This document shows positions 2,604-32,000 of a stretch of DNA of 32,000 bases, one piece after another. The translations under genes and the position numbers were made by a program. Origin of the DNA: Gemmata obscuriglobus (lineage in GTDB: Bacteria > Planctomycetota > Planctomycetia > Gemmatales > Gemmataceae); contig NZ_CP042911.1 of NCBI RefSeq assembly GCF_008065095.1, positions 6,450,001 through 6,482,000 on the forward strand, in the 5' to 3' direction. How positions within the stretch are numbered: position 1 is the first letter of the stretch; every line of letters starts with the position of its first letter. The notes beneath the pieces are model-generated. The model saw nothing but the letters and a program-made list of their open reading frames with translations. It had not been told where the DNA came from and did not search any database.

Positions 2604-6995
<4,392 letters not shown>

Positions 6996-7020
6996 GGTTC
7001 ACCTTGTATTTCAGAGGTCC

Positions 7021-7131: not shown

Positions 7132-10896
<3,765 letters not shown>

Positions 10897-11348
10897 CGGT
10901 CGCTCCTTACCAGAAAAACACGAGCGCGACGCATCATGCACGCCGTTACCAATGCGGCAACGGGGCTTGCGTCGGTGAGCAACGAGCGTTATTGAAGAGT
11001 AGAGAAGGCTGTTCCCGCCGCAACCGCACGCGAAGGGCGCGCGACGAAGGACGGCTCGCGGAACACGACTCCCCCACACAGACCCGGCACACAAGGCGCC
11101 TGGTTCGCAGCGGGGACGTCAACGGTCATAGGCATGGTTTTGAATCGAAGAGGTACGACACATCGGAGCGAGTGGGTCGTGTACATTGTCACCACTGGCT
11201 ACGCGGAACCGCCCCTCTCACTCACATCTCAATCCCCGGTCGCGCTCGCGAGCGGCACCGGAAGCGACGAATAGCAAGTGAAGAGAGAACAGGGGTCGTA
11301 ACGGCCGTAACAGGGCGTGGCGCGACCACACGCCATACGACAATAATA

Positions 11349-11392
11349 CCCAGGCGGGGTGGAAAAGTCACCCCACCTGGGCATTTTTTTTG
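11349..11392. terminator. Intrinsic-terminator-like hairpin in the rplL-rpoB spacer; the T8 run is on the plus strand
   Basis: The stem 11349-11361 / 11369-11381 is 13 bp with one mismatch and has the loop gaaaagt. On the plus strand it is followed by CA + TTTTTTTT (11384-11391). Read on the minus strand it is preceded by A8 and followed by GUAUUAUUGUCG. It lies 55 nt downstream of the rplL stop. Confidence 0.55.
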
Positions 11393-11445
11393 CATCCCAC
11401 CAGGACCACCTAGTCGCTATCGACCAGGTGATCTTCGGAGCAAAA

Positions 11446-11832
11446 TTAGCCAGCCGGCTTGATGGAGACCTTCGCACCGGTCTCTTCCAGCTTCTTCTTG
11501 ACGTCTTCGGCGGTCTTCTTGTCCACACTTTCCTTGATCGACTTCGGCGCACCTTCGACCGTCGCCTTGGCTTCGCCGAGGCCCTGGCCGGTGATTTCGC
11601 GCACGACCTTGATCGTCTTCACCTTGTCGGTGAAGCTCTCCAGGATCACGTTAAACTCGGTCGCTTCAGCCGGCTTTTCGGCCGCAGCAACGGGACCCGT
11701 GGGAGCAGCGACCGCAACCGCGCCAGCGGCCGGCTCGATCTGATACTTATCCTTGAGGTAGGTCTTGAGTTCAACAGCCTGAACGAGGGTGAGGCCAGCG
11801 AGAGCGTCGCCGAGTTCTTGAACGGAAGCCAT
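11446..11832 (-). CDS. rplL: 50S ribosomal protein L7/L12
   Basis: 128-aa ORF with an Ala/Pro hinge ([20 protein letters not shown]) and the C-terminal domain [15 protein letters not shown]...[11 protein letters not shown]. Confidence 0.95.
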
Positions 11833-11953
11833 GACTTCGATCCTTTGGTGAATGCGCCGGGTGAAGCGATCCGGCTAGGTGCGTAATAGCTGGTCAGGTT
11901 AAAAGCCCGAGCCACACTCGGGCTCAAATAGACAATTAAAATCCCAACAGAGT

Positions 11954-12505
11954 TCAGCTAGCAGCAGCAGGGGCCGCAGCCCCTTCGCTCTGCTTCTCTT
12001 CGATCGCCTTAAGAATCCCGGCGAGCTCCGCACCCGGCGCCATGAGAGCACCGGCCAGAGCGGCCCCCGGCGCAAGGACGGCGGCGACAACCTCGCCAAT
12101 CGCCTCTTGCTTGGTCGGCACCTTGGCGAGCTGCGCCAGGGTCATGATCTCGCCGTCAGCGATGCCGGTCTTTTCTTTGACCTTCTCAGGCACCTTCAAG
12201 TCCGGACGGAGCAGCTTGAGAGCAGCCTCCACTGCGGTCCCAAGAGCCTTCGCGCTGTCGGCACCCCAGCACAGAAGGGTCGGGCCGGAGCCCGTTTCCA
12301 CCTTCATGCCGTTCTCGCTGAACACCTTCCGCACGAAGCTGTTCTTGACCATCTTCACTCGAACCTTCTTCTCACGAAGGCTCTTCCGAAGCGTATAGTC
12401 AGCCGCGGAGTCCAGCTTCAGCGGTTCCAGCAGAACGAAGTCCCGCACACCCTGAAAGGTCTTGCGGAGGCTGTTCAACTCCAGTTCTTTGATCTTCTTG
12501 CTCAT
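11954..12505 (-). CDS. rplJ: 50S ribosomal protein L10
   Basis: 183-aa ORF immediately upstream of rplL. It has an L10-like N-terminal region and an Ala-rich C-terminal helix (L12-binding type). Confidence 0.9.
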   Translation of the reverse strand: MSKKIKELELNSLRKTFQGVRDFVLLEPLKLDSAADYTLRKSLREKKVRVKMVKNSFVRKVFSENGMKVETGSGPTLLCWGADSAKALGTAVEAALKLLRPDLKVPEKVKEKTGIADGEIMTLAQLAKVPTKQEAIGEVVAAVLAPGAALAGALMAPGAELAGILKAIEEKQSEGAAAPAAAS

Positions 12506-12506
12506 T

Positions 12507-12611
12507 GGTGTCTCGTGTTTGGCGCCTTGTGCTCAGTGTTTTGCAACCGGAACTTGCTCGCCAGCACACAAGGGCGGCAAGCAAAGCGCCGGACACAAAA
12601 CACGAAACACC
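12507..12611 (-). promoter_or_regulatory. Structured rplJ leader (L10-leader-like)
   Basis: In the RNA, 5' GGUGUUUCGUGUUU (12611-12598) pairs with AAACACGAGACACC (12520-12507), 14 bp with one G-U pair. GGCGC (12590-12586) pairs with GCGCC (12526-12522). The 3' arm ends 1 nt before the rplJ ATG, so it would occlude the ribosome-binding region. An internal hairpin GCUUGCCGCC...GGCGAGCAAG is also present. Confidence 0.4.
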
Positions 12612-12616
12612 AATTA

Positions 12617-13486
12617 TTAGATCGACAACCGGATGCCCGGCGACATGGTGGCCGAGAGCACGACGCCGTTGATGAAGTTCCCCTTGACGCCCGAAGGCTT
12701 CACGGAGCGAATCTGCTCAACGAAGGTCGTAATGTTCTCAACGAGCTTCTGCTCGTCGAAGCTCAACTTGCCGACACCAGCGTGGATCTGACCCGTCTTG
12801 TCGGTGCGGTACTCGACCTTGCCGGCCTTGAACTCCCGCACGACCTGGGCGAGATCGCCGGTCGCGGGCACCACCGTACCGGCCTTCGGCGTGGGCATCA
12901 GGCCGCGCGGGCCGAGCACCTTACCGAGCCGGGACACCTGGCCCATCATGGCCTGCACCGCGAGCACCACGTCGAACTCGAGGAAGTTTTCTTTTTGAAC
13001 CTTCTCAACGAGATCCGCCCCGCCAACGACATCTGCACCAGCGGCCTTCGCCTTGGCGACATCGTCACCCGAGCAGAACACCGCGACGCGAACACTCTTA
13101 CCGATCCCGTGCGGAAGCGGAATTGCGCCACGAACCATCTGGTCCGACTGGGTCGGGTCGATGCCGAGGTTGATGTGCAACTCGACGGTTTCGTCGAACT
13201 TGGCCCGCTTTAACTTCTTCAGCTCAGCGACAGCCTGCTTGACCGGGATCGAGCCGGCGTCTTCGAGTTTCTTCTTGACGTTGTTCAGGTGGTTACGAAG
13301 CTTCTTGCCGCGGCGGGGACCCACGCCCGGCTTTTTGTTCTTCTTGGCCTGCGGCAACTCGGCCTCAACAACCTTCTTCTCAACCGCTTCGACCGCGGCG
13401 GGCGCCGGCGAGTCGGCGGGCGGAGTTGCAGGAGCAGCCAGCGCCACTTCAGCCCCCGCAACAGCGGGTTCGTTCTCGTTCGCCAT
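12617..13486 (-). CDS. rplA: 50S ribosomal protein L1 with a ~60-75 aa Ala/Pro/Glu-rich N-terminal extension
   Basis: The L1 core runs from ...[52 protein letters not shown] to the C-terminus. The start is taken as the ATG at 13486 (MANENEPAV). The track start at 13531 is a GTG and cannot be excluded. Confidence 0.88.
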
Positions 13487-13669
13487 AATCTCGTTTCTCT
13501 CGGTAGCGGGGGTCACAGCGGCGATCGCCACCGTTACAGCCCCTCCCGCCGCGTGCCCAAAAAGCTGCGGCGGTATGAGAAGATATCAATTACAACACCA
13601 AACGCGTGCCGACAAGAAGCCCGCACGCGTTTTTCAGCCACTTTTAACGGACCAAAAACGCACGGAACC

Positions 13670-14137
13670 TCAACCTTCAACCACGGTCAGCCCCATGCTC
13701 CGGGCCGTACCTTCGATGATCCGCATCGCGTGATCAACATCACGAGCGTTCAGGTCCGCTTGCTTCTGCGCGGCGATGTCCCGCACTTGCTTCTTGGTGA
13801 CGCTGTGATTCTTGTACTTGCCCTGCTTCTTGGCGTCGGCGGGGATCACTTCCTTGCCGGCCTTCTTCGCGTGCGGAATCTTGGCCGCGAGCTTCAGCAG
13901 AATGGCCGCGGGCGGGCTCTTGATTTTGAACTCGAAGCTCTTGTCCGAGTAGACCGTGATCACGACCGGCAACATCAAGCCCTTCATCTCGGGCTTGTTG
14001 GTCTTGTCGTTGAACTGCTTCACGAACATGCCGATGTTCACGCCGTGCGCACCGAGCGCGGGACCGACCGGCGGGGCGGGCGTTGCCGACCCACCCGGGC
14101 ACTGGAGCTTGACCTGCGCGGTTACCTGCTTCGCCAT
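13670..14137 (-). CDS. rplK: 50S ribosomal protein L11
   Basis: 155-aa ORF starting [43 protein letters not shown] (L11 N-terminal domain). It carries a ~13-aa Lys-rich insertion ([22 protein letters not shown]) relative to typical 141-aa L11. Confidence 0.95.
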
Positions 14138-14216
14138 TACTGCACCTGAGCCGGATTGATCTTTTTCAAAACGTGTATCTTAGGCGGAGGCCACAGCATG
14201 GCCACAGAATTTACAG

Positions 14217-14266
14217 CACAACTGCCCCTCCCAGTAACACGACGGCTACCAAGAGGGGCAGTTGTG
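14217..14266 (-). terminator. Hairpin between nusG and rplK; possible attenuator or terminator
   Basis: A 14-bp perfect stem (cacaactgcccctc 14217-14230 / gaggggcagttgtg 14253-14266) with a 22-nt loop. On the minus strand it is followed by CUGUAAAUUCUG. It starts 20 nt after the nusG stop. Confidence 0.35.
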
Positions 14267-14285
14267 TTGGGAAACGCCGTGAGGC

Positions 14286-15179
14286 TCACGCCTTGGTCAC
14301 CTGCCAGTATTCCAACTCAACATCAAGAGGCCGGCCCCAGAACGTCACGGTCACGATAACCTTGGGCGGGTCGGTGGGGTCCTTCGGCAGGATCACGTCT
14401 TTCACGTCACCTTCGGAGTCCTTGAACGACCCTTCCTTGATCCGGACGCGATCACCCTTCTCAAAGTCCACCTTGACCTTGGTCGGCCCCTTCTCCGGCC
14501 CGACCTTCTCGCCGAGCATCTGCTTCACTTCAGCATCGCTCATCGGCTCCGGCACCGGCGTATCGTTCGGGCGCGGACGGAGCTTCAGAAAATCGCCGAC
14601 CCCGCTGGTTTCGCGAATGAGGTACAGGAGCCGGTCGTTGAACTCCAGCTCCGCGAAAATGTAGCCCTGAAACTTCTTGACCTTTCGCTCGACCTTTCGC
14701 TCGACCGTATTATACTCGCCTGTTTTCTTATCTTTGACCTTGACCGCTTTCTTCTCGATCACCTTTTCGACCGGCACCATGATCTGGCCGAACACGTCTT
14801 CCAAACCTTCGATCGCGATCTTGCGCAGAATGGCAGCCTTGATCGTGTCCTCACGACCACTCTGCACCTTAATCGCATACCACTTCTTTTTGTTCTCGGG
14901 CACCTCTTCGGCGGAGTCAACATCCCCTTCCGAATGCGGAGGAACCTCGCCTTCCACATCCTCAGACACGGCGGCACGATCTTCGCTGACTACAGCCCCT
15001 GCAGACTCGCCGGCTACGATCTCAGCCGCTTCCTCACTCACGTGAGAGCCGTCCGGCACGGGCAGAGATTCGGCAGCCGCGACCTCCGCGTCACCCGACC
15101 CATCGGCAGTCAAATCCGGGCTGGACGCCGCGGCGGGCGACTCATTTACAGCAGCATCGGCGGCGACATTGTCACTCAT
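14286..15179 (-). CDS. nusG: Transcription termination/antitermination factor NusG with a ~100-aa acidic N-terminal extension
   Basis: The NGN core is KKKWYAIKVQSGREDT...FQGYIFAELE, and the KOW region is FEKGDRVRIKEGSFKDSEGDVKDV...VTVTFWGRPLDVELEYWQVTKA. The start is set to the ATG at 15179 (MSDNVAAD), which has GGAAGG ~9 nt upstream. The track start at 15224 would overlap the secE stop. Confidence 0.9.
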   Translation of the reverse strand: MSDNVAADAAVNESPAAASSPDLTADGSGDAEVAAAESLPVPDGSHVSEEAAEIVAGESAGAVVSEDRAAVSEDVEGEVPPHSEGDVDSAEEVPENKKKWYAIKVQSGREDTIKAAILRKIAIEGLEDVFGQIMVPVEKVIEKKAVKVKDKKTGEYNTVERKVERKVKKFQGYIFAELEFNDRLLYLIRETSGVGDFLKLRPRPNDTPVPEPMSDAEVKQMLGEKVGPEKGPTKVKVDFEKGDRVRIKEGSFKDSEGDVKDVILPKDPTDPPKVIVTVTFWGRPLDVELEYWQVTKA

Positions 15180-15217
15180 GTTGCTTCGGCCTTCCGGCCG
15201 CCTCGCAGGAACCCGCG

Positions 15218-16192
15218 TCACCACTTCGCTTCTTGAACCTGCGCGCCCTTATCGGCGTTCGTCGCCCGCGCCGGGAGCACCCCGACCGTTTGCCGACTCA
15301 ACAGCCAGCCCCAGAACAGGTCGACCGCGAGCAGAAACACGGTCATCAGCAAGGTCGTAACCAGCACCACGACGGTGTCCTGCGCGAGCCTCTTGCGAGT
15401 GGACCAGGACACCTTGTTCATCTCCGCCTCGGTGGCGATGAGGAACTCGGCGAAGTCCGGCACATTAACCGCACGCAGCGACACCCAAAGCGTCACGGCA
15501 ACGAGCAGGGCAAGCACGACCACCTTCGCACCGATCGTCAGCAGGAAGCCGTGCATCAGCGGCACCGAACGCCAACCGAACGGCAAGGTCAATTCAAGCT
15601 GCTCACCAACCAGTCCGTTCGTGAACATCGACCACGCACCGGACACGCCGATAATGAGCACCCCGAGTATGGTGAGGCGCCGAACCTTCACCCCGAGCGA
15701 CCGCTTATACTGGTGCGTCGTGAACCACCCCTGTTCTTCGAGCATCACCATCCACTTCGCTCCGGTCACGCCGGCAAGAAACCGAACGGCACCGAACGCG
15801 AGAGCCAGGGCAACCACGCCAGCGACCGCCATTCCGGGCGGCCCTTCAATATTCATCGCAAACGCGCGGGCCACGAAGAAGATGGCAATCACAGCCGAAA
15901 TGACGAGAAAAATGCCGGCGTGCGTGCCCTTTGGAGGGTTGCCGGCAATTTTGAATCCGACCCAACTGAGCCCGATCAGCGCCGCCACCTCGGCAGTAAA
16001 CCAAAGCAGGTAATCTGCCGGCCGACTGCCGATCGACGGCGAGACACTTTGTGACCAGAACAGTGGGATCACATAAAGCACGATAGCCAGCACGGCGACG
16101 ACATAGATCGCCCCGAGCAAGCTTGCGACGGGCAGACTCAACGACTGACCCGGAGTGCTGGGTGCGGAACTGGTTTCAACGGCAGTCGCCAT
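15218..16192 (-). CDS. secE: Preprotein translocase subunit SecE fused to a ~260-aa polytopic N-terminal membrane region
   Basis: The C-terminal 70 aa (FLIATEAEMNKVSWSTRKRLAQDTVVVLVTTLLMTVFLLAVDLFWGWLL) form a SecE core in the canonical position between tRNA-Trp and nusG. They are preceded by ~6-7 hydrophobic segments. The start is set to the ATG at 16192 (MATAVETS), with GGAGAGGACGGAG upstream. Confidence 0.8.
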   Translation of the reverse strand: MATAVETSSAPSTPGQSLSLPVASLLGAIYVVAVLAIVLYVIPLFWSQSVSPSIGSRPADYLLWFTAEVAALIGLSWVGFKIAGNPPKGTHAGIFLVISAVIAIFFVARAFAMNIEGPPGMAVAGVVALALAFGAVRFLAGVTGAKWMVMLEEQGWFTTHQYKRSLGVKVRRLTILGVLIIGVSGAWSMFTNGLVGEQLELTLPFGWRSVPLMHGFLLTIGAKVVVLALLVAVTLWVSLRAVNVPDFAEFLIATEAEMNKVSWSTRKRLAQDTVVVLVTTLLMTVFLLAVDLFWGWLLSRQTVGVLPARATNADKGAQVQEAKW

Positions 16193-16313
16193 GCTCCGTC
16201 CTCTCCATCCCTGTCGTGACCGCAACCGCCGACCCGGCGCCTGGGGCGCATCTTCGGCGCGTCAATAAGCGGCGTGAAGTAAACGAGTTGCGGCACAACT
16301 GCCGCATTGAGCC

Positions 16314-16360
16314 AACCGGCCGCCGAGAAGGGATTTATTTCCCCTTCTCGGCGGCCGGTT
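16314..16360. repeat. 19-bp perfect GC-rich hairpin between tRNA-Trp and secE
   Basis: aaccggccgccgagaaggg (16314-16332), a 9-nt AT-rich loop atttatttc, then cccttctcggcggccggtt (16342-16360). No U-tract follows in either orientation. A second 7-bp hairpin (tgcggca caac tgccgca) lies at 16289-16306. Confidence 0.7.
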
Positions 16361-16446
16361 GAAACTCGACGACTGCTTCAGTGCCGCACTAGCTTGGCAA
16401 GCGACGGCACCCACTCGGCCGCTAACGGCCAACCGATCCGCGACAG

Positions 16447-16518
16447 CACGAGCGGAGGGATTTGAACCCCCAACCGACGGTTTTGGAAACCGTTGCTCTA
16501 CCGTTGAGCTACGCTCGT
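16447..16518 (-). tRNA. trpT: tRNA-Trp (anticodon CCA)
   Basis: The reverse complement folds as a cloverleaf: acceptor ACGAGCG/CGCUCGU, D arm GCUC-AACGGUA-GAGC, anticodon arm ACGGU-UUCCAAA-ACCGU, T arm GGGGG-UUCAAAU-CCCUC, discriminator G. The A1-U72 pair is typical of bacterial tRNA-Trp. No encoded CCA. Confidence 0.9.
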
Positions 16519-16622
16519 AGCTCAGGGATCGGAAATCAGGCGTCAATAGTCAGTGGACGCACACCTCAACAACTCTCGCCCACCACCTACTTACCGACTC
16601 TGATCCCCACCCCTGGCAACAA

Positions 16623-17927
<1,305 letters not shown>

Positions 17928-22741: not shown

Positions 22742-24051
22742 GAACGGGCACGGAATAACTTCCCGACTTCATGGTGGGTCTGGAAGTGCGGTGTAGTTCC
22801 ACTTGGGTAGGACCGGATCGAAGACGATCTTCATCGCCTTCTTGAACCCGGTCACGCACTTCCGGCCGGTCGCGTACGCCTTGTTCAACCGCCCGACGAA
22901 GATCCGCAACCCGGTCGTCGTCTCGGACTTCGCCATGTAATGGCGAACCGCCTCCACGGTGTGGAACACCACCCGCGACAGGCCCGGCTCACGTGCGGGA
23001 ACAGCCGGTGTTCGATCGGGTTGTACTTCGAGCAGTACGGCGGGTCGTGGGCCACCCGAATCTCCAGCCCGGTCGCTTCGCCTACTCCTGAAGGTCTTCC
23101 TGGAGCAGGTACTGGGGCGCATTATTGCTGCCCCGGCCGTTGCACAACACCAACGCCTTCTTCGCCTCCGGATACCGAGTGCGGCCGTGCTGCTCCCACC
23201 ACGCCGCGAGGCCGCCGCACGCCAACGCGCTGGTGTCATGGCTCGTGTTCACATGCACGAACCCCTCGTTGCGCCCCCACGTCGTACAGGCGTGCGGGAC
23301 ACCTTGCCCCCGCCCTGACTCGGGAACTCGTGGTCGTTGGTGGTGATCGTCTTCCGCGTGCCGCTCACACCATCGCGGTAGAAGCCCCCCAGCAACTCCT
23401 TTTTCTTTGTGTCGATGCTCAACACCGGCAGGCCCGCCGCAAGGTACGGGCCCTTCAACCGGGCGATGGTCTCGAACGGGGCGTTGCGGTCCAGGTGCCG
23501 GCCCATCGTCTTCCTCTTCAACGCCTTGCGTTGGCGGTACCCGTGCCGGCGCAACAACGGGCCGACGGTCCGGCGGCTGACCGACGCCCCCAGCGCCTTC
23601 ATCCGCCGCGCGATCTGTCTGCGGGACAGGCTGGTCCACCTCACGTCCGAGTTCATGGGGCCATCGACCGTGTGGCCCCAGAGTACCTCCGCGAACGGTC
23701 CCGACACGCCCGGCTTGGGGTCGATCAACTGCTTGCGTCCGCCCCCTTTTCCGCACCCGCGGGGTGTCGAGTTCGTCTTCGGCTTCCAGTTCACCAATCC
23801 CCTGGCGAATCGTCTTGAGATCGCAGCCCAGCAACGTGGCGATGTACTCGGTTCCGCCGTGCCCGAGTTTGGTGGCCTCGATCGCCGCGTATCGGCGTCG
23901 GTCGTTCTCGCGGAGAGAGAGCGGTACAACCGCTTCATCATTCGCTTCACGGCGGCTGGGTACGGACTCGTGGCGCACTCCGCTCGGTCCCGGAACTGGA
24001 GGGAGCGTAACCGAAGACTACAATTCCGGGAAGTTACTCCGTGCCCGTTTC
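22742..24051 (-). mobile_element. ISAzo13-family-like insertion sequence (~1.31 kb) with terminal inverted repeats
   Basis: 22742-22763 (gaacgggcacggaataacttcc) is the reverse complement of 24029-24051 (ggaagttactccgtgcccgtttc), apart from one substitution and one extra t. These repeats enclose the degenerate transposase below. Confidence 0.7.
22769..23978 (-). pseudogene. ISAzo13-type (Rhodopirellula-type DDE) transposase, at least 3-4 frameshifts
   Basis: The reading must hop between three minus-strand frames. The pieces are ...RYAAIEATKLGHGGTEYIATLLGCDLKTIRQGIGELE...RVRKRG, then GGRKQLIDP...RWTSLSRRQIARRMKALGASVSRRTVGPLLRRHGYRQRKALKRKTMG...LSIDTKKKELLGGFYRDG, then ...FVHVNTSHDTSALACGGLAAWWEQHGR..., then YCSKYNPIEHRLFPHVSRA, then VVFHTVEAVRHYMAKSETTTGLRIFVGRLNKAYATGRKCVTGFKKAMKIVFDPVLPKWNYTALP. 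Confidence 0.7.
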
Positions 24052-24070: not shown

Positions 24071-24862
24071 TCAACGATGCGCGGCGGTCAGCAGGTAGCC
24101 GACCAGTTCATCCAGTTGCGCGGCGCCACACCCTGCCCGGCACGCGTCCTCGACGGAACCGGCCGCGGCGGAGATGTGCGGCAAACCGTACATGCCGGCC
24201 GACCCACGTAATTGGTGGGCAAGTTCGGATACTCGAAGCATGTTCCCCTCGCGGAGCGCCTCGCCGATCGCGCGTACCTTCTCAGGCAGCGCCCGGCAGT
24301 AATCAGCGGTCAACTGGGCCAGACCCGACGGAACGGCCTCCCCATAACCCACAGAAGGCGGCACATCGAACCAAGTCGGGGAGCAACTCATCCCCCAACG
24401 ATCCGGCGAGAGGTAAGTTCTTACGACCTGGAGCAGCTTGTCCGGATTTACTGGCTTGCTCAGATATGTGTCGCAACCGGCCGACAGGCATTTCTCTTCA
24501 TCACACGACTGCGCGTGTGCGGCGAGTGCCACGACCGCCCCTGAGTACCCGCGCCGGCGCAATGCGCGAGCCGCCGCGTACCCGCCCGGCTCGCGCATCT
24601 GCATATCCATCAGGATCACGTCGAACGCACCACCGGACGCCAGTTCCAGTGCAGTGCGGCCGTTCTCAACCGCTTCCACTTCCAACCCAGCACGCTCTAA
24701 AATGTGCCGCAGCACTGATTGCGTCTCCGTCGCGTCCGCGGCCAGTAGTACCCGTCCGGCAAGCCGCTCCGCCGGATCCTGCGGGATCGAACCGGGGCGC
24801 GACTGTTCCGCAAGGCCGGCTGGGTCTGGGGACTCGCTCATCTCGACCTCGCGCAGGGACAT
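24071..24862 (-). CDS. Response-regulator receiver fused to a C-terminal Hpt domain (REC-Hpt phosphorelay protein)
   Basis: REC: RVLLAADATE...FDVILMDMQMREPGG...VVALAAHA...YLSKPV. The phospho-acceptor Asp and the Lys are present. Hpt: LRVSELAHQLRGSAGMYGLPHISAAAGSVE (HxxKG-type motif as HQLRGSAG). The start is the ATG at 24862 or 24841. Confidence 0.8.
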   Translation of the reverse strand: MSLREVEMSESPDPAGLAEQSRPGSIPQDPAERLAGRVLLAADATETQSVLRHILERAGLEVEAVENGRTALELASGGAFDVILMDMQMREPGGYAAARALRRRGYSGAVVALAAHAQSCDEEKCLSAGCDTYLSKPVNPDKLLQVVRTYLSPDRWGMSCSPTWFDVPPSVGYGEAVPSGLAQLTADYCRALPEKVRAIGEALREGNMLRVSELAHQLRGSAGMYGLPHISAAAGSVEDACRAGCGAAQLDELVGYLLTAAHR

Positions 24863-25068: not shown

Positions 25069-27393
25069 TCACAAGCGCTCTGCGCCAGCCAGAAAGATGC
25101 GGTCGAACTGGTCGGCGATCGAACCGAACGCGTACACCAGCACAGGGTCGAACTGCCCCGGGGACTCGGCTACGATGACCCGCACCGCGCGGGGGTGGCT
25201 CAGCGCCGGCCGGTACGGCCGGCGGCACCGCAACGCGTCATACACGGACACCAACGCCACGAGCCGCGCGGCCAGTGGGATCTGTTCGCCGCGCAGCCCG
25301 TCCGGATATCCGGTACCGTCCCAGCGCTCGTGGTGCCCCTTCGCAATGTCGGCCGCCACCGCCACCCCCACGGCTTCCGGGTGCGCCGCGGCCAACCGGG
25401 CAAGCAGGTGACCGCCGACGGTCGGGTGCGCTTGCACCGCCAGCCGCTCGGTCTCGTCCAGCCGCCCCCGTTTGGACAGCGTGTCCGGCGGGACCGACAG
25501 CATGCCAACGTCGTGGGCCGGTGCGGCCTTGGCCAGCAGGTCCACGAACACCGGGTGCGACAGCCGCACGTACGCGCCCGTGTGCGGAACTGCCGCGGCA
25601 AGGGCACGGACGTACTGAGGGATCCGAGCGTGGTACCCGCGGTCCACCGCGCCGACCTCTTCGGCCAACCGGCACGCCCCTTGCGCCAACAGGGCGACGG
25701 CCGTGGACGCCGTCGCATCGGGCGCCACATCGGCGGGGGGCCGGCTCCCGGTGCCGCTGCCGTGGTGCCGCCCGAGTTCGCCGCGGCGGGCCAGCAGCCC
25801 CCGCACGCGAGAGAGGAACTCGGGCGGGGTGAACGGTTTGCGGATGAAGTCGTCCGCGCCGCCCAGAAGCAACCCGCCGAGCGACTCGGTGGGCACCCGG
25901 CCCGACATGTACAGGATCATCGGGACCGGCGGGGCCGCGACCTGCTGCACCCGGGCAATGAACTTGGAGCCGTCCAGCCGCGGCATCTCTTGATCGACCA
26001 CCAGGAGATCGAACCGCCCACCTTCGACCCGCCCCAGCCCGTCCCGCCCGTCGGCCGCCTCCACGCACTCGTACCCGTCGCCCAGCAGCGCGCGCACGTA
26101 CGCGCGCACGTCGGGGTCGTCGTCGATCACCAGCACCCGGGGGCGCGGCGGGCCGGCCGCGCCGGCCCGCGCCGGCGGCCGGTAACTGACGAACGGCAGC
26201 AGCGCCGCCGCCGCCGCCGCCGCCGAAGGGAACCGCCGCCCGGGGTCCGGGTCCATGAGCTTGGCCACCAGCGCGTCCAACTCGGCCGGCAGTTCGGGGC
26301 GGTGCTCGCGCACCCGCGGCACGGTCCCGTGCAGCCGCCGCGCCACCATCGCCATGAGGTCCCCGCCGGCGGGAAACGGGTCGCGCCCGGTGAGGGCCAG
26401 GAACAGCGAGGCGCCCAGCCCGAACACGTCGGCCCGGCCGTCGACCCGACTCGGGTGTTCGACCTGTTCCGGGGCCATGTACCCGACCGACCCGATCAGC
26501 ACCCCCGGCTCGGTCAGCTCCTGGGCCGAGTGCCGCGCGAGCCCGAAGTCGAGCACCTTGGCCTTCCAGTCCGGGGTGACCAGGATGTTGGGCGGTTTGA
26601 TGTCCCGGTGCACCAGCCCGTGCCGGTGCGCCTCGGCCAGCGCCTCGGCGACCTGGCGGAGCAGGTCCGCCGCCCGGTGCACCGGGAGCGGGCCGCCGCC
26701 GGCCACGGTGGCCTGCAGGTCGGCCCCCGGCACTAGGTCCATCACGTAGTACTCGCGGGCGGGGCCGCCCGGGCGCAGCGGCCCCTCGCGCCCGGCGTCC
26801 AGGCAGCTCACGATGTTCGGGTGCTGCAGCCGGGCCACGGCCCGGGCCTCCAGGAAGAAGCGGCTGCTGAGCCGGGCGTCACCCGCGTGCCGCTCGGTCA
26901 ACACTTTGAGCGCCACCGGGCGCCGCAGGTGCCGGTGCTCGGCCCGGTACACCAGCCCCATGCCCCCGCGCCCCAGAGGCTCTAACAGGCGGTAGTGCCC
27001 CAGCAGCAGCGAGGCGCTGTCGCCGGCGCGCACCGCGTCCGCCTGGAACCGGGTCAGCAGGTGCCGCCCCATCAGCGCCGTCAGTGCGGCGTTCGTGTCC
27101 GCTTGGGCGGCGAGTTCGGCCCGCACCTCGGCGGGCAACTCGTCCCACTCCTCGCGGAGCAGAACGCCGCTGCTCAACAAATCCAGCACCGGCGTGGGCT
27201 GGGGTCCCCCCGGCGGCGCCCGGCGCGCGTCCGCCGGGCCGGACCGGGTCCCGTTGCGCAACTGGTTCACCCCACGGACCTCCGCGCCCCGCCGCTTCGT
27301 GCGCCGGGGCTGTGCTATAGAGAAATCGGGACGCACGCTGAACTCTAGTGCGCGTCCGAACCGGCTCCGACCGCGCCAGCCGGAACACAGCAT
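25069..27393 (-). CDS. Hanks-type Ser/Thr protein kinase - REC - HD-GYP three-domain fusion (774 aa)
   Basis: Kinase, aa ~134-385: LGRGGMGLVYRA, VALKVL, HRDIKPPNIL, DFGLA, GYMAPE. REC, aa ~419-533: VLVIDDDPD, LLVVDQEMPRLDG, ILYMSG, IRKPF. HD-GYP, aa ~575-760: HDVGM, HHERWDGTGYPDGL. The N-terminal 130 aa and the exact start are uncertain; the ATG at 27393 is the longest option. Confidence 0.85.
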   Translation of the reverse strand: MLCSGWRGRSRFGRALEFSVRPDFSIAQPRRTKRRGAEVRGVNQLRNGTRSGPADARRAPPGGPQPTPVLDLLSSGVLLREEWDELPAEVRAELAAQADTNAALTALMGRHLLTRFQADAVRAGDSASLLLGHYRLLEPLGRGGMGLVYRAEHRHLRRPVALKVLTERHAGDARLSSRFFLEARAVARLQHPNIVSCLDAGREGPLRPGGPAREYYVMDLVPGADLQATVAGGGPLPVHRAADLLRQVAEALAEAHRHGLVHRDIKPPNILVTPDWKAKVLDFGLARHSAQELTEPGVLIGSVGYMAPEQVEHPSRVDGRADVFGLGASLFLALTGRDPFPAGGDLMAMVARRLHGTVPRVREHRPELPAELDALVAKLMDPDPGRRFPSAAAAAAALLPFVSYRPPARAGAAGPPRPRVLVIDDDPDVRAYVRALLGDGYECVEAADGRDGLGRVEGGRFDLLVVDQEMPRLDGSKFIARVQQVAAPPVPMILYMSGRVPTESLGGLLLGGADDFIRKPFTPPEFLSRVRGLLARRGELGRHHGSGTGSRPPADVAPDATASTAVALLAQGACRLAEEVGAVDRGYHARIPQYVRALAAAVPHTGAYVRLSHPVFVDLLAKAAPAHDVGMLSVPPDTLSKRGRLDETERLAVQAHPTVGGHLLARLAAAHPEAVGVAVAADIAKGHHERWDGTGYPDGLRGEQIPLAARLVALVSVYDALRCRRPYRPALSHPRAVRVIVAESPGQFDPVLVYAFGSIADQFDRIFLAGAERL

Positions 27394-27523
27394 TTCGCGC
27401 GGCGGCCGGAATCATCAGCCGGGGCGCGAAATACGGTGAGCCCGCAAATTCGGCCCGAACCGCTCGATAAGCGGAGTGAGCGTCTGGAACCCTCCGGACG
27501 CATTGCCGAGCGGAGAGCGACGA

Positions 27524-27838
27524 ATGGCCGGTGCATCCCCGGTTCGCGTGACCGACGACGAGCGCCCGGGGTGGGCCCGGCTGGTGCTCGCCGGCCGGGT
27601 GACCGTCACCGACGCACACCCGCTGCACGCCGCGGCCCGCGAAATACTCGCCCGCGGCGCCAACGTGGCGGTGCGGTGCGAGGGGGTCGAGCACCTCGAC
27701 ACGGCCGCGATCCAAGTGCTACTGTCCCTGAGCCGCGAGGTCCGTCGGGCGGGCCGGCAGTTGGTCGTCGGCGGCGTCCCCGGCCCCATCGCGGAGTACT
27801 TACGGCTGGCCGGACTGGCCGGACAGCCCGCCGCCTGA
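27524..27838 (+). CDS. STAS-domain protein (anti-sigma-factor-antagonist-like)
   Basis: ARLVLAGRVTVTDAHPLHAAAREIL...VAVRCEGVEHLDTAAIQVLLSLSREVRRAGRQLVVGGVPGPIAEYLRLAGL follows the SpoIIAA/STAS layout. Thr occupies the position of the phosphorylatable Ser (DSSG becomes DTAA). The start is set to the ATG at 27524, with GGAGAG 6 nt upstream. The track GTG at 27476 is also possible. Confidence 0.7.
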   Translation: MAGASPVRVTDDERPGWARLVLAGRVTVTDAHPLHAAAREILARGANVAVRCEGVEHLDTAAIQVLLSLSREVRRAGRQLVVGGVPGPIAEYLRLAGLAGQPAA

Positions 27839-27873: not shown

Positions 27874-28239
27874 ATGAACAAGACCATCCTGATCGTGGAC
27901 GACTCCCCCACCATGCGGCAGATGGTGGGCGACACGCTTCGCGGCGCCGGGTACGCGGTGCTCGAAGGGGTCAACGGGTCCGACGCGCTCGCGAAGGTCG
28001 CGGGGCGCACGGTGCACCTGGTCATCACCGACTTCAACATGCCGGTGATGGGCGGGCTGGTGCTGATCGAGCGGCTCCGCGCCAAACCCGAGTTCCGGTT
28101 CACCCCGATCCTGGTGCTGACCACCGAGTCCGAAACGTCGCGCAAGGAACAGGGGAAGGCCGCGGGCGCGACCGGCTGGGTGACCAAGCCGTTCGACCCG
28201 GCGCGGCTGGTCCAGGTGGTTAAGCGGTTAATGCCCTGA
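27874..28239 (+). CDS. cheY: CheY-like single-domain response regulator (121 aa)
   Basis: The internal ATG of track ORF 27436..28239 gives MNKTILIVDDSPTMRQM...HLVITDFNMPVMGG...ILVLTTES...GATGWVTKPF. The acidic pocket DD, the phospho-Asp, Thr and Lys are all present. It lies immediately upstream of cheA. Confidence 0.9.
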   Translation: MNKTILIVDDSPTMRQMVGDTLRGAGYAVLEGVNGSDALAKVAGRTVHLVITDFNMPVMGGLVLIERLRAKPEFRFTPILVLTTESETSRKEQGKAAGATGWVTKPFDPARLVQVVKRLMP

Positions 28240-28256
28240 CACGAACGGCGGACGCC

Positions 28257-31200
28257 ATGCAACTCGATCCCGAGCGCTACCTGCGCACCTTTTTCGACGA
28301 GGCCGTCGAGCACATCAGCGCCCTTGAGGGGGCGCTGCTGCGGCTCGAATCCGGGCCGCACGACCCCGCGGCGGTGGACGCCGCGTTCCGGGCCGCCCAC
28401 TCGGTCAAGGGCGGCGCGGACGCGGTCGGGCTCCCGCACATCGCCAAGTTCACTCACGGGCTCGAGGGGTTCCTGGAGCGGTTCCGGGGCGGGGGCAAGA
28501 TCCCCCGCCGGGTGCTGGACCTGTTGCTCGAGGCGACCGACACGCTCGGCCGGCTGGTGTCGGCCGCCCGCGCCGCCGAGGCGCCCCCCCCGGGCGTCGA
28601 CGAGCTGCTCGCGCGGCTCACCACCGACGCCGGCGGGTCGATGGTCTCCAAGTCGTGGTGGGCCGCCCCGCAGGCGCTGGGCGCGCTCCAGTCGCAGGCC
28701 GGCGCCCCCAAACCGGCTCCGACCTCTGGGTCGCAGGCCGGGAGCCCCAAACCGGCCGCTCCGGCGCCGGCCGCTCCGCCGCCGGCCGCGGCCCCCGAAC
28801 CGACCACCTACACGGTGACCGTCGTCCCGCACCCCGAGGCGCTGCGGTCCGGCCTGGACCCCCTCGGGCTGCTGCGCGAGGTCGGCGCCCTGGGGACCGT
28901 CGAGCGGGTCGAGGTGCACACGAAGGGGCTGCCCGCGCTCGCCGACCTGGACCCCGAGCGGTGCTACCTCTCGTGGACCCTCCGGCTCAGCACCGCGCAG
29001 CCCGCGGACGCGATCCGCGACGTGTTCGCGTTCGCTCCGGCCCTGGTAAAGGCGACCGTGCAGGTCGGTGCCACCGACCCGTCGCCAGCCGACTCGGCCG
29101 CGCCGCCCCAGGCGCCGCCCGCTCCGCCGCCGCCGAAGGCCCCGCCCGCGGCCCCCAAGACCCCGGCCGCCACCTGGGTCGCATCGTTCGAGCGCAAGCT
29201 GCCGATTCCGGACCCGATCCGGTTCGCCACCTTCCTCGTGGACCGGGGGACCGTTACCGCACCGCAAGCGCTCACCGCGCTCGCCCGACAGCACGAGGCG
29301 CGCCCGACCCTCGGGCGCGTCGCGGTCGAGGCCGGGCTGGTGACCGTCGAGAACCTCACGGGGCTGCTCGCCCACATGGGGCCGGACGAAGGGTTCGGGA
29401 GCGCCGCGGTGCGGCTCGGGTACCTGTCCGAGAACGACCTGGGGCGGCTCGTGCTCGCGCAAGAGCGGCAGGCCCCGCCGATCGGGGAGTGCCTGGTCGA
29501 AACCGGGGCCCTGACCCCCGACCAGTTGAGCACCGAGACGCTCCAGTTCTGCGCCAAGGCGGCGACCGCGCCGCACCCCGCCTCCAGCTATTGCGACCTC
29601 CCCCCGCCGCCTGTGGAGATGCCCCGCGCCCCCGGGCAGTCGCTGCTGCTCGAGAACGGCCCGATGATCGGTGACTTCTGCCAGGAGGCGTCCGAGCACC
29701 TGGAAACGGCCGACAGGAACCTGCTGGTCATCGACGGCGACCCCACCAACGCGAACGCCCTGAACGCGGTGTACCGCGGGTTCCACACCATCAAGGGCGT
29801 GTCCAGCATGCTCGGGCTGGCCGCGGTGCAGATGGTGGCCCACGAGGCCGAGAACCTGCTCAACCTGGCCCGCGACGGCAAAGTGCGGCTCCAGGGCAAG
29901 CCGATGGACCTGGTGTTCGCCAGCACCGACGCGCTGAAGCGCCAGGTGCAGTTCATCCGCGCCTGGAGCACCGAAGGCGGGCGGCTCGCAGAGGACCCGG
30001 CCCTCCCGGCGCTGGTCGCGGAGCTGCGCGTCGCGGCCAGTGGCGCGACCGAAGCCCCGCCCCGGGCCGCACCCAAGTCCGTCGCCCCGCCGGCCCCCGT
30101 TGCTGCGGCCGCGCCGGCACCGGCGGCCGAGCACGTCCCGGCCCCGGCCCCCAAGGCGGAGAAGGCCGAGCACGCCCCGGCCCCGGCACCGGCACCGAAG
30201 GCGGAAAAGGCCGAACCTGCCGCCGAGGGCGCCGGCCTGCGTCGCATCCCCGAGAAGGAAACGGTGCGGGTCGACAAGGACCGGCTCGACAAGCTCATCA
30301 ACACCATCGGCGAGCTGGTCATCGCGCAGTCCATGGCCCAGCAGGAGTTCGACGAGATGTCCAACGGCTCGGGCGTGGGCTCGCTGGCCCTGCCCGAACT
30401 GGCGAAGATCTCGCGGGACCTGCAGGAGCTGAGCCTGTCCCTGCGAATGGTGCCGCTCCAGGGCACGTTCCAAAAGATGGCCCGGCTGGTGCGGGACCTG
30501 TCCCGCAAGATGAACAAGCCGGTGGAGCTGGAACTCCACGGGGAGGAAACCGAACTCGACAAGACGGTGGTGGACCAGCTCGGCGACCCGCTCATGCACA
30601 TGGTCCGCAACGCCGTCGACCACGGGCTCGAAGACCCCGACGAGCGGACCACGGTGGGCAAGACGCGGGAGGGGCACGTCGAGCTCCGCGCGTACCACCA
30701 GGGCGGCAGCGTGTTCATCGAGCTGACCGACGACGGCAAGGGGCTGGACCGTGAGCGGATCCTGAAGAAAGCGGTCGAGAAGGCGATTATTGCCGAAGGC
30801 CAGCGGCTCACGGACCCCGAGATCTACGCGCTCATCTTCGAGCCCGGGTTCTCGACCGCCAAGGCCGTCACCGACGTGTCCGGCCGCGGGGTCGGGATGG
30901 ACGTGGTGCGGCGGAACGTGGAGGCGCTGCAGGGCAACATCCTGATCCGCACCCAGGCCGGCAAGGGCACCACGTTCACCATCCGGCTGCCGCTCACGCT
31001 GGCCATCATGGACGGGCTGATGGTCGCGCTCGGGGACGACGTGTACGTGCTGCCGCTGCTGTCGGTGGTCGAGTCGTTCCGCCCGCACCCCGCGGACCTG
31101 CGCCGGGTCGCGGGCCACGGCGAGGCGGTGACGGTCCGCGGCGAGGTGGTGCCGCTCCTGCGGCTGCACCAGCTGTTCGGCCGCTCCGCGCGGGTCGAGG

Positions 31201-31457
31201 ACCCGGGCCGGGGGCTGGTGGTGCTGGTCGAGGACCAGGGCAAAAAGCACGCGATCCTGGTGGACGAGCTGCTGGGCCAGATGCAGGCGGTGGTGAAGAG
31301 CCTGGACGCCAACTACCGCCGGGTGGAAGGGCTCGCCGGGGCCACGATCCTCGGCGACGGCCGGGTGGCGATGATCCTCGACATCCACGGGCTGGCCCAG
31401 TTGCACGCCCAGGGCGGCGGGGCCCTGGAACCGATGTTGGCCCCGGCCGCGGTGTGA
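28257..31457 (+). CDS. cheA: Chemotaxis-type histidine kinase CheA with two Hpt domains and an intervening MshEN/T2SSE_N-like repeat module (1066 aa)
   Basis: Hpt-1: FFDEAVEHISALE...FRAAHSVKGGADAVGL. A conserved post-P1 module follows (TYTVTVVPHPEALRSGLDPLGLLREVGALG...DPERCYLSWTLRL). Four 24-aa repeats occupy 29220-29549. Hpt-2: FCQEASEHLE...YRGFHTIKGVSSMLGL. An Ala/Pro linker carries the duplicated PAPAPKAEKAE. The rest is a dimerisation region (VRVDKDRLDKLINTIGELV), HATPase (HMVRNAVDHG, DDGKGLD, GRGVGMDVV, GKGTTF) and a C-terminal CheW-like P5 (VLPLLSVVE...GATILGDGRVAMILD). Confidence 0.9.
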   Translation: MQLDPERYLRTFFDEAVEHISALEGALLRLESGPHDPAAVDAAFRAAHSVKGGADAVGLPHIAKFTHGLEGFLERFRGGGKIPRRVLDLLLEATDTLGRLVSAARAAEAPPPGVDELLARLTTDAGGSMVSKSWWAAPQALGALQSQAGAPKPAPTSGSQAGSPKPAAPAPAAPPPAAAPEPTTYTVTVVPHPEALRSGLDPLGLLREVGALGTVERVEVHTKGLPALADLDPERCYLSWTLRLSTAQPADAIRDVFAFAPALVKATVQVGATDPSPADSAAPPQAPPAPPPPKAPPAAPKTPAATWVASFERKLPIPDPIRFATFLVDRGTVTAPQALTALARQHEARPTLGRVAVEAGLVTVENLTGLLAHMGPDEGFGSAAVRLGYLSENDLGRLVLAQERQAPPIGECLVETGALTPDQLSTETLQFCAKAATAPHPASSYCDLPPPPVEMPRAPGQSLLLENGPMIGDFCQEASEHLETADRNLLVIDGDPTNANALNAVYRGFHTIKGVSSMLGLAAVQMVAHEAENLLNLARDGKVRLQGKPMDLVFASTDALKRQVQFIRAWSTEGGRLAEDPALPALVAELRVAASGATEAPPRAAPKSVAPPAPVAAAAPAPAAEHVPAPAPKAEKAEHAPAPAPAPKAEKAEPAAEGAGLRRIPEKETVRVDKDRLDKLINTIGELVIAQSMAQQEFDEMSNGSGVGSLALPELAKISRDLQELSLSLRMVPLQGTFQKMARLVRDLSRKMNKPVELELHGEETELDKTVVDQLGDPLMHMVRNAVDHGLEDPDERTTVGKTREGHVELRAYHQGGSVFIELTDDGKGLDRERILKKAVEKAIIAEGQRLTDPEIYALIFEPGFSTAKAVTDVSGRGVGMDVVRRNVEALQGNILIRTQAGKGTTFTIRLPLTLAIMDGLMVALGDDVYVLPLLSVVESFRPHPADLRRVAGHGEAVTVRGEVVPLLRLHQLFGRSARVEDPGRGLVVLVEDQGKKHAILVDELLGQMQAVVKSLDANYRRVEGLAGATILGDGRVAMILDIHGLAQLHAQGGGALEPMLAPAAV

Positions 31458-31558: not shown

Positions 31559-32000
31559 TCAGTACCGCACCGCGAACCCGACACCGGCGAAGAGGTCGCC
31601 CGCCCGGCGGTTCAGGCCGAACCCGAACCGGGCGTCGACCTGGAAATTCGGAGTCACCCGGTACAGGAGCCCGCTGTCGAAGTAATACTGGGGACCGGCC
31701 CGCGGGGTGTCGGCCCCGGCCGGCGCGAGCACGAAGAACTCGGTGAACGCCCCGAGCCGCTCGGTCAGAGTGTACCCCACCGACAGCGATTGCGCGAGCT
31801 GGGCGTACGTGCCCCCGGTGTCGTCCACGGCGGCGGCCGCGGCGCTGGTCCCGCCGAGCGACACCAGGTCGGGGATCAGCTCCCACGAGTAGAGGTACAG
31901 TAGCCCCGGCAGCGGGTGCCGGCCGCTCAGCTCCCGCCGCCCGGTGGGGACGGTCATCTGCAAGGTGACCGCGGTTTCCGGGCGCCAGCCGGCGCCCTCC
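31559..32000 (-). CDS. Outer-membrane beta-barrel-type protein (resembles the 'MetA-pathway/transporter' family), C-terminal part; the 5' end lies beyond the window
   Basis: The frame is open to position 32000 (..EGAGWRPETAVTLQMTVPTG..). It shows alternating beta-strand-like patterning and the terminal ...LLYRVTPNFQVDARFGFGLNRRAGDLFAGVGFAVRY, an aromatic C-terminal residue typical of OM barrels. It is convergent with cheA. Confidence 0.45.
   Translation of the reverse strand, partial: EGAGWRPETAVTLQMTVPTGRRELSGRHPLPGLLYLYSWELIPDLVSLGGTSAAAAAVDDTGGTYAQLAQSLSVGYTLTERLGAFTEFFVLAPAGADTPRAGPQYYFDSGLLYRVTPNFQVDARFGFGLNRRAGDLFAGVGFAVRY

Follow-up and report, generated by a model that had tools for sequence, protein, structure and literature searches.

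Why should a chemotaxis histidine kinase of Gemmata obscuriglobus carry, within its phosphotransfer region, a repeat that resembles the cyclic di-GMP (c-di-GMP)-binding N-terminal domain of MshE? The kinase, a CheA protein, is encoded in a 32,000-nucleotide stretch of the genome (assembly GCF_008065095.1, contig NZ_CP042911.1, forward-strand positions 6,450,001 to 6,482,000), which we call the window and from whose first nucleotide all coordinates are counted. An initial annotation, made from the sequence alone, had described four tandem 24-residue MshEN-like units between two Hpt domains of this CheA, and had seen in them an unusual route for c-di-GMP control of a chemosensory kinase. The repeat, its homology, its fold class, its place in the domain order and its distribution across the family are established below. 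We propose that it is a four-unit MshEN_N-type module in the CheA tether, in which the inner pair of units would form a c-di-GMP pocket and binding would alter phosphotransfer, an account whose chances we put somewhat short of even.

Residues 322 to 431 of the CheA protein (nucleotides 29220 to 29549, in frame) read as four 24-residue units with the spacers HEARP, GPDE and ERQAP, exactly as first described, with arginine at position 1 in unit 1 only and glutamine at position 24 in units 1 and 3 only. Their location between the two Hpt domains also stands, with a refinement: the repeats lie precisely between a P2-like domain and the second Hpt domain (Hpt2), the P2-like domain and linkers following Hpt1. 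The gene and the parts of the module are as follows.

28257..31457, + strand: cheA, 1066 residues; Hpt1, P2-like domain, four-unit MshEN_N-type module, Hpt2, P3, P4, P5
29214..29567, + strand: whole folded module, residues 320-437, eight helices in the AlphaFold2 model; extends slightly beyond the end first noted, 29549
29220..29291, + strand: unit 1 (outer), residues 322-345, RFATFLVDRGTVTAPQALTALARQ; Ala for Gly at position 3
29301..29306, + strand: Arg349-Pro350, directly 5' of unit 2; invariant in 15 of 15 CheA inserts (alignment columns R45 and P46)
29307..29378, + strand: unit 2 (inner), residues 351-374, TLGRVAVEAGLVTVENLTGLLAHM; Leu352, Gly353, Leu367 and Leu371 kept, Met for Gln at position 24
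29391..29462, + strand: unit 3 (inner), residues 379-402, GFGSAAVRLGYLSENDLGRLVLAQ; Phe380, Gly381, Leu395, Val399 and Gln402
29478..29549, + strand: unit 4 (outer), residues 408-431, PIGECLVETGALTPDQLSTETLQF; Gly410 present, family-typical aromatic residue at position 24

Summed over all pairs of the four units, the BLOSUM62 score is +91, compared with -121 ± 32 for random 24-mers from the same protein and -116 ± 24 for within-unit shuffles. None of 20000 trials under either of these two null models reached the observed score, which lies about 7 standard deviations above the null. No DNA-level tandem repeat was found inside the insert, implying that the repeat is old and persists at the protein level only. 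When all six frames of the window were scanned for further units of the MshEN type (at least 10 of 11), only five other single matches came up, each of them isolated.

The proposed homology with MshE is borne out by sequence models, by profile comparison and by the predicted structure. As defined by Wang et al. 2016 (PMC5013675, Nat Commun 7:12481), the domain comprises two 24-residue motifs separated by a 5-residue spacer. The NCBIfam model NF053729.1 ('c-di-GMP_motif, MshE-related') covers exactly this arrangement, two motifs plus spacer, in 53 positions and has a curated cut-off of 38 bits; it matches the whole CheA with 46.5 bits and the fragment with 54.4 to 54.6 bits (E 8e-15), in two stretches, and it matches all 15 orthologous inserts at E ≤ 0.01. 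The Pfam model PF05157 (T2SSE_N), with which the initial annotation had proposed to check the assignment, finds no match at E ≤ 1 in the CheA, the fragment or the 15 inserts, yet the MshEN-type model does match, so that the MshEN part of the assignment survives and the T2SSE_N part does not. The missing match is expected and uninformative: in the alignment by Wang et al., motif II has already begun where the PF05157 consensus starts. Neither PF05157 nor the alpha/beta C-subdomain is found in the module, where a linker runs from unit 4 straight to Hpt2, and the insert falls into the category that these authors call 'MshEN_N only, no T2SSE_N1 domain'. In HMMER comparisons with sequences of the Protein Data Bank (PDB) the single fragment gives weak matches (PilF, E 1.3e-3; MshE, E 0.68), and a profile of the 15 inserts gives clear ones, to PilF (6f8l, E 1.3e-9), MshE (5htl, E 1.2e-3) and PilB (9g1w, E 6.5e-3).

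Structure prediction, which had likewise been suggested as a check, gave the same answer. The AlphaFold2 model of the module, built with the insert alignment, has eight helices, two per unit, with a mean predicted local distance difference test score (pLDDT) of 86, a core above 90 and a predicted template-modelling score of 0.71; the first helix of unit 1 begins two residues early, behind a conserved PDP sequence. When the model is compared with the PDB by Foldseek, the top match is 5htl, MshE in complex with c-di-GMP (probability 1.0, root-mean-square deviation 1.6 Å over 57 columns, 32% identity), followed by several c-di-GMP-bound structures of PilF GSPII-B. No E-value is better than 0.45, a weakness that stems from the alignment of 57 columns, less than half of the model; none of the PDB structures matched covers the whole eight-helix module.

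Which of the four units would then form the MshEN_N-like pair? Of the 30 strongest couplings given by mean-field direct coupling analysis (DCA) of 170 sequences, about 157 effective, 14 join units 2 and 3, where 4.4 would be expected (P = 2.8e-5); two fall between units 1 and 2, one between units 3 and 4 and four between units 1 and 4, and the hairpin contacts within units are sensible. The couplings between units 2 and 3 include the reciprocal 11-16 and 16-11, the symmetric 3-3 and 6-6, and 2-20, the last being close to the contact of Leu10 with Leu54 and Leu58 in MshE. The HMMER alignments to 5htl also run over units 2 and 3, and the 32% identity found by Foldseek is nearer to that of units 2 and 3 (29% by our own count) than to that of the outer pairs (25%). 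In four of the five CheA orthologues that lack the unit 2 glycine, the unit 3 glycine is absent as well. It is the agreement of these four lines, the couplings, the alignments, the identities and the joint loss of the glycines, that makes us lean modestly towards a nested arrangement, U1[U2 U3]U4, which would have an MshEN_N-like bundle at its centre, rather than towards tandem bundles.

The setting of the module within the protein bears on how it might act. Besides the module, CheA comprises the following parts.

28257..28586, + strand: Hpt1 (P1), residues 1-110, limits approximate; HSVKG with phospho-acceptor His48 at nucleotides 28398-28400; Pfam Hpt
28812..29081, + strand: P2-like alpha/beta domain, residues about 186-275, with the signature DLDPERCYLSW, recognised from conservation among orthologues
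29082..29207, + strand: Pro/Ala-rich flexible linker, residues 276-317; 10-69% identity among orthologues
29664..29945, + strand: Hpt2, residues 470-563, the best Pfam Hpt stretch; HTIKG with His510 at nucleotides 29784-29786
30258..31400, + strand: kinase core, by Pfam coordinates P3 dimerisation domain 30258-30431, P4 HATPase_c 30585-30998 and P5 CheW-like 31014-31400

All four Pfam families represented (Hpt, twice, H-kinase_dim at residues 668-725, HATPase_c at 777-914 and CheW at 920-1048) score above their cut-offs, and with its Hpt histidines, P3, P4 and P5 the product of 28257-31457 is a CheA histidine kinase. The NCBIfam CheA models match the 1066-residue protein with scores that fall short of their equivalog cut-offs (538.6, where 793 is required), which is expected for so atypical an architecture. 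The P2-like domain has no Pfam match here, and is 28 to 81% identical among orthologues, well over the linkers; its DLDPERCYLSW signature is common to the CheAs of many phyla, for example those of Nitrospira, Leptospira and Spirochaetales. Among the N-terminal domains Hpt2 is the most strongly conserved (59 to 99% identity), and the linker from Hpt2 to P3 is about 100 residues long. Within the Pro/Ala-rich linker, just 5' of the module, nucleotides 29118-29171 contain an imperfect 21-base-pair DNA tandem repeat (2.5 copies, 78% matches).

We suggest that the module entered the CheA as a single cassette, within the flexible tether that joins the P2-like domain to Hpt2. Of its units, the inner ones, 2 and 3, would most likely form a four-helix bundle equivalent to the c-di-GMP pocket of MshE, with outer units 1 and 4 packing together; the ligand may be contacted by the backbone amides of Gly353 and Gly381, by the hydrophobic clusters of Leu352, Leu367 and Leu371 and of Phe380, Leu395 and Val399, by Gln402 and possibly by Arg349. 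Binding would probably be micromolar or weaker. A ligand on the face between units 2 and 3 might act as in PilF GSPII-B, where the first helical turn is unwound and the neighbouring subdomain reoriented, and could thereby stiffen or reshape the tether and alter the access of Hpt1 and P2 on one side, and of Hpt2 on the other, to P4 or to partner proteins. Because the module has an Hpt domain on either side, any change that a ligand caused in the geometry of the tether would be seen in the choice of the histidine phosphorylated. In this way the level of c-di-GMP might be coupled to the flow of phosphate towards the CheY protein of the same operon, and the receiver (REC) domain of a neighbouring HD-GYP protein could in principle also take phosphate, closing a loop. 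In P. aeruginosa, CheA activates the phosphodiesterase Pch. The pairing of the units, the binding of ligand and all of these downstream effects are proposals that we infer from the comparisons above.

What is known of MshE and PilF provides a yardstick for binding. In MshE, changing any of the conserved hydrophobic residues costs more than 10-fold in affinity and the mutations G11L and G40I abolish binding, and changes at Arg9, Asp12 and Gln32 cost less than 5-fold. PilF GSPII-B binds c-di-GMP very tightly with Lys and Leu at position 1, in the absence of any arginine there, and the double mutation Q190E plus Q218E abolishes its binding (Neissner et al.). Its neighbour GSPII-A is a non-binder, in which Ser at position 1 abolished binding and an intact motif in the full domain still did not bind; rescue required removal of the C-subdomain and of an N-capped extra helical turn, together with Arg for Ser at position 1 and Gln for His/Arg at position 24, and an Ala in place of the Gly at position 3 lowers the affinity by another 10-fold (Neissner et al.). 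Wang et al. 2016 (PMC5013675) note substitutions in many MshEN domains that probably cost them the ability to bind. The N-terminal domains of XpsE, P. aeruginosa PilB and PilF GSPII-A are folded but ligand-free.

In the CheA module, position 3 is glycine in units 2, 3 and 4 and alanine in unit 1, so that the pairs 2+3 and 3+4 are complete and the pair 1+2 is not. Positions 2, 17 and 21, which in the motif hold the Leu clusters between which the guanines are sandwiched, are hydrophobic throughout in the inner units (Leu, Leu, Leu in unit 2; Phe, Leu, Val in unit 3) and weaker in the outer ones (Phe, Ala, Leu in unit 1; Ile, Leu, Thr in unit 4). The CheA of the window thus keeps both inner glycines and all six inner hydrophobic positions. 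Overall, the likelihood that the CheA module binds c-di-GMP in this species may be placed a little under one half.

How widespread is the module outside CheA? The insert profile was searched exhaustively with HMMER over 1.84 billion representative sequences (clusters at 50% identity), giving 3926 relatives at E ≤ 1e-3 and 1371 at E ≤ 1e-10, of which only about ten of the top matches are CheA proteins. The others are mostly free-standing proteins of 115 to 190 residues, typically about 130, that match the four-unit module end to end (P0128-P0288) and reach 40 to 83 bits with NF053729.1, usually in two or three registers. No Pfam match is on record for these proteins, whose clusters are named at best 'hypothetical protein', and the gene neighbourhoods of two of them (L052 and L053) contain no chemotaxis or c-di-GMP genes. 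An identification with the c-di-GMP receptor CdgR was considered and rejected, CdgR being ComFB-like, binding at a dimer interface and occurring only in cyanobacteria. This large, unannotated family of free-standing four-unit proteins is the most interesting by-product of the analysis. If its members bind c-di-GMP, they would be a sizeable new class of small receptors with a role comparable to that of single-domain PilZ proteins.

Conservation was counted in 157 of the free-standing relatives aligned to the insert hidden Markov model (HMM). The spacer between units 1 and 2 has five residues in 154 of the 157 and that between units 3 and 4 has five in every one; the central spacer has four in 103, six in 33, five in 15 and 10 or 11 in five. 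The 5/4/5 pattern of the Gemmata CheA is therefore the family norm. Glycine occupies position 3 in 65%, 97%, 99% and 41% of units 1 to 4, respectively, and glutamine occupies position 24 in 86%, 30%, 100% and 0%, unit 4 having Phe or Tyr there in 80%. Like the covariation, this conservation of Gly and Gln favours units 2 and 3 as the MshEN-like bundle. The residue at the position of Arg349 is arginine in 104 of the 157. Longer arrays also occur, with eight units in P0125 and about 12 in P0173 (296 bits on NF053729.1), and in P0179 four units are fused to a C-terminal region with weak HD-type matches.

A word-indexed protein search with the insert alone gave no matches, and the whole CheA was used as the query for orthologues instead. 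The closest relative genome is that of Gemmata algarum JC673 (89% identity). The four-unit insert is present in the Gemmataceae orthologues L001-L004, L006-L008, L010 and L015 and in P0002-P0014 and P0016. Its identity is 90% to the closest orthologue and 38 to 62% among the more distant ones, much like that of the P2-like domain; for the two linkers upstream of the module the same comparisons give 10 to 36%. Orthologues of about 850 residues (P0015 and P0017-P0024) keep Hpt1, the P2-like domain and Hpt2, with a plain Pro/Ala linker in the module's place; three of them carry a precomputed match to PF27543.1. A CheA of 688 residues from a Frigoriglobus metagenome-assembled genome (L009/P0025) is without both the module and Hpt2 and retains 'FDPVRIAALLARPE' at residues about 245-260, whose resemblance to the start of unit 1 suggests a secondary deletion. 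Since the module is better conserved than the linkers while orthologues without it exist, it is a constrained but dispensable cassette.

Among 15 orthologous inserts, position 3 is glycine in unit 1 in two and in unit 4 in four; both glycines are present in 10 for the pair 2+3, in four for the pair 3+4 and in two for the pair 1+2. Units 2 and 3 have both lost the glycine in P0007, P0008, P0009 and P0013, and P0004 is without that of unit 2. Gln402 is conserved in 14 of the 15. The invariant columns are mostly core or structural (L23, A31, A52, A80, L86 and L109).

A good deal weighs against the proposal that the inner pair of this CheA is a c-di-GMP pocket. For the pairing itself, the DCA depth of only about 157 effective sequences is small, and no unit pair taken alone reaches the 38-bit cut-off of NF053729.1, the pair 1+2 scoring 31.7 bits, 3+4 28.1 and 2+3 only 22.4; these scores and the strict 5-residue spacers point instead to tandem bundles of units 1+2 and 3+4. 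As to the ligand contacts, the units end in Q, M, Q and F at position 24, so that every possible pair has one glutamine only and none has it in both units, and position 1 is R, T, G and P, outside the R, K or L of the extended consensus (Neissner et al. 2024) in units 2 to 4, although Wang et al. 2016 (PMC5013675) admit Pro in their relaxed search motif. In a simple relaxed-motif count, the pairs in the window score 18 to 19 of 22, proven binders 20 to 22 and the non-binder GSPII-A 19, a count that cannot decide the matter since GSPII-A scores like the window pairs. Five of the 15 orthologues lack one or both inner glycines and retain the module, so that whatever function is conserved across the clade cannot depend on a canonical site; other close CheA orthologues get by without the module altogether. 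In L001 and L007 the kinase-REC-HD-GYP gene adjoins the cheA locus, but L002, L003, L004 and L008 do not have it there: the HD-GYP neighbour is lineage-specific, confined to the two closest relatives, and its association with cheA is weak rather than that of a conserved partner. Our literature search found no binding measurement for this CheA or for four-unit family members.

These points are what gives substance to a serious competing explanation, that the module is a degenerate MshEN_N domain which no longer binds a nucleotide and has become a rigid spacer or a surface on which a partner protein docks, for example STAS, CheY or another part of the array; its likelihood is substantial, though clearly below a half. 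The key deviations parallel those of GSPII-A, with Thr and Gly at position 1, Met and Phe at position 24, and the alanine and early helix of unit 1, and the relaxed-motif score of 18 to 19 is matched by the 19 of that non-binder. Changes that probably abolish binding occur in many MshEN domains (Wang et al. 2016), the invariant residues of the insert are mostly core or structural ones, and the module has stayed under constraint despite glycine losses in P0007, P0008, P0009, P0013 and P0004, with the glycine kept in unit 4 of only four and in unit 1 of only two of the 15. Against this, the CheA of the window and its nearest relatives retain the glycines of units 2, 3 and 4 and every position of the hydrophobic cluster. 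Gln402 in 14 of 15 inserts and its counterpart in 157 of 157 relatives, with inner glycines in 97 to 99%, are hard to explain by fold alone; Arg349-Pro350 is invariant, and the corresponding insert of Aeromonas veronii CheA does bind c-di-GMP. If the module is degenerate, the Gemmata protein would be nothing out of the ordinary, a sensor domain put to new use as a scaffold.

Might the conserved departures from the canonical motif instead mark a pocket altered at positions 1 and 24 for some other ligand, such as 3'3'-cGAMP, c-di-AMP or another guanine nucleotide? The family substitutions are themselves conserved (a hydrophobic residue at position 24 of unit 2, an aromatic one at position 24 of unit 4, Pro at position 1 and Arg two residues before unit 2), and VcMshEN binds cGAMP weakly, with a dissociation constant (KD) of 330 µM as quoted in PMC7288161. 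Against this, the part of the site that is conserved comprises the Gly3 backbone-amide contacts to guanine O6 and N7, we know of no MshEN-type domain that prefers another ligand, and supporting gene context is absent, which leaves this explanation very unlikely. It is hardly credible that there is no real domain here but only a Leu/Ala-rich helical linker with chance periodicity in a high-GC genome. The absence of a PF05157 match and Foldseek E-values of 0.45 at best would fit such a linker, which is refuted by the repeat score (0 of 20000), the HMM match at E 8e-15, the 3926 and 1371 full-length relatives at the two thresholds and a core pLDDT above 90; in addition, conservation is well above that of the linkers, and no adjacent pair of units occurs elsewhere in the six-frame scan. 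A bolder version of the binding proposal would make the four-unit module a distinct, unannotated class of MshEN-derived receptor, with a nested pocket in which Arg-Pro and a single Gln replace the canonical Arg/Gln pairs, captured in the Gemmata CheA so that c-di-GMP chooses which Hpt domain is served and a feedback loop runs through the REC-HD-GYP protein; taken as a whole, we regard it as improbable.

The genes around cheA were also examined, and those that bear on signalling are these.

27476..27838, + strand: STAS-domain gene, first of the STAS-CheY-CheA operon; Pfam STAS_2 and STAS
27874..28239, + strand: gene for a CheY-like single-domain response regulator, 17 nucleotides 5' of cheA; Pfam Response_reg
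25069..27393, - strand: gene for a Ser/Thr kinase-REC-HD-GYP protein, divergent; Pfam Pkinase, Response_reg and HD_5/HD

The STAS-CheY-CheA triad is kept in all Gemmataceae loci compared, with or without the insert. The HD-GYP gene was originally placed next to cheA, which needs correction: it is divergent and starts 80 nucleotides 5' of the operon, and the STAS and CheY genes separate it from cheA. Its product of 774 residues is an unusual three-way signalling fusion of kinase, receiver and HD-GYP domain with an intact HHERWDGTGYP motif, and is a candidate c-di-GMP phosphodiesterase. Adjoining it is the gene for a REC-Hpt protein of 263 residues (24071-24862, - strand), kept in L001 with 64% identity, which could be a further phosphorelay component of this locus. 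The operon ends after cheA, and a convergent gene at 31559-31963 encodes an outer-membrane-channel-like protein (Phenol_MetA_deg). No chemoreceptor, CheW, CheR or CheB is found among the open reading frames (ORFs) scanned in the window, implying that this CheA is encoded apart from such partners. Further upstream, the signalling genes are separated by a fragment of an ISAZ013-type DDE transposase (23082-23978, - strand), which covers only positions 126-206 of the 308 in the profile, from a conserved housekeeping cluster (2604-17927, - strand) with rpoC (2604-6995), rpoB (7132-11094) and the genes for ribosomal protein L1, NusG, SecE and EF-Tu. With 312 and 335 residues, the ORFs for NusG and SecE are unusually long and have the Pfam domain in the C-terminal part only; they may have N-terminal extensions or over-called starts.

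Is a module of this kind in a CheA then as unusual as was first supposed? That view is not supported: an MshEN_N domain in CheA has already been published by Wang et al. 2016 and is seen in four other groups. Their Supplementary Tables 4 and 6 (PMC5013675) list the architecture HPT-P2-MshEN_N-P3-P4-P5, and residues 261-390 of Aeromonas veronii CheA bind c-di-GMP with a KD of 2.6 µM despite a motif I that has no Arg at position 1 (PMC5013675). In our own sample of CheA proteins, two-unit NF053729.1 matches just before P3 occur in Nitrospira (51 bits), Spirochaetales (46.7), Leptospira (46.1) and Magnetococcales (42). In the Nitrospira CheAs L023, L041, L045 and L046 (residues about 265-315; 51 bits) the two motifs stand only one residue apart (...ALAQQ-K-RVGEILVEQ...). 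From the published listing and our sample together, an MshEN_N domain in the CheA tether must be regarded as fairly widespread. The Gemmata CheA shares with the CheA type of Wang et al. an MshEN_N-type motif in the tether, downstream of P2. It differs in having four units (5/4/5) followed by Hpt2, in place of two units directly before P3, in its planctomycete host, where Wang et al. list Actinobacteria and Proteobacteria only, and in motifs that are more degenerate at positions 1 and 24.

The structural relatives show the same mixture of likeness and difference. With the N-subdomain of Vibrio cholerae MshE (5HTL) the module shares helix-turn-helix units of the pattern xLGxxhhxxGhhxxxxLxxxLxxQ and a four-helix bundle. 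Unlike 5HTL, it has no T2SSE_N1/PF05157 subdomain and no ATPase, its units 2 to 4 are without Arg1 and units 2 and 4 without Gln24, the spacer between its best-matching units has four residues, and two extra units flank these. The GSPII-A, -B and -C domains of Thermus thermophilus PilF (Neissner et al. 2024, 2025; 8PDK, 9G1W, 6F8L) belong to the same motif family and provide the best PDB sequence match, and PilF too has three consecutive units, at residues 300-384. The PilF domains, in contrast, carry a C-subdomain and are N-terminal on a traffic ATPase, and their units form consecutive two-unit bundles, whereas covariation suggests a nested arrangement in Gemmata. GSPII-B shows that the arginine is dispensable, and GSPII-A that binding can be lost through minor departures from the motif and an N-capped, longer helix alpha1.

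Closest in number of units are the proteins that Wang et al. 2016 list as '(MshEN_N)2', namely Cyanothece cce_1044 (free-standing), Geobacter lovleyi Glov_2742 (with CheX) and Myxococcus MXAN_7396 (with REC-ACyc). Like the Gemmata module they have four units in a row, free-standing or on signalling domains that include a chemotaxis phosphatase; none lies inside a CheA, and the likeness is one of listed architecture. The tables of Wang et al. 2016 hold no binding tests of these proteins. A functional likeness only connects the proposed role of the module with the PilZ-type adaptor MapZ, which acts with CheR1 in P. aeruginosa, and with CheA-Pch: in these cases c-di-GMP acts on the chemosensory pathway or CheA acts on a c-di-GMP phosphodiesterase, but the receptor folds of the MapZ and Pch cases are unrelated and act in trans. 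In the literature searched, only Wang et al. 2016 and citing reviews deal with MshEN in CheA, and no study of its kinase output was found.

We conclude that a c-di-GMP module in CheA is known, and that what is new in Gemmata is its four units, the second Hpt domain downstream, the planctomycete host and, probably, the nested topology. Compared with the CheA proteins described earlier, that of Gemmata offers a sharper test case, for which close orthologues without the module, or without its glycines, provide natural controls.

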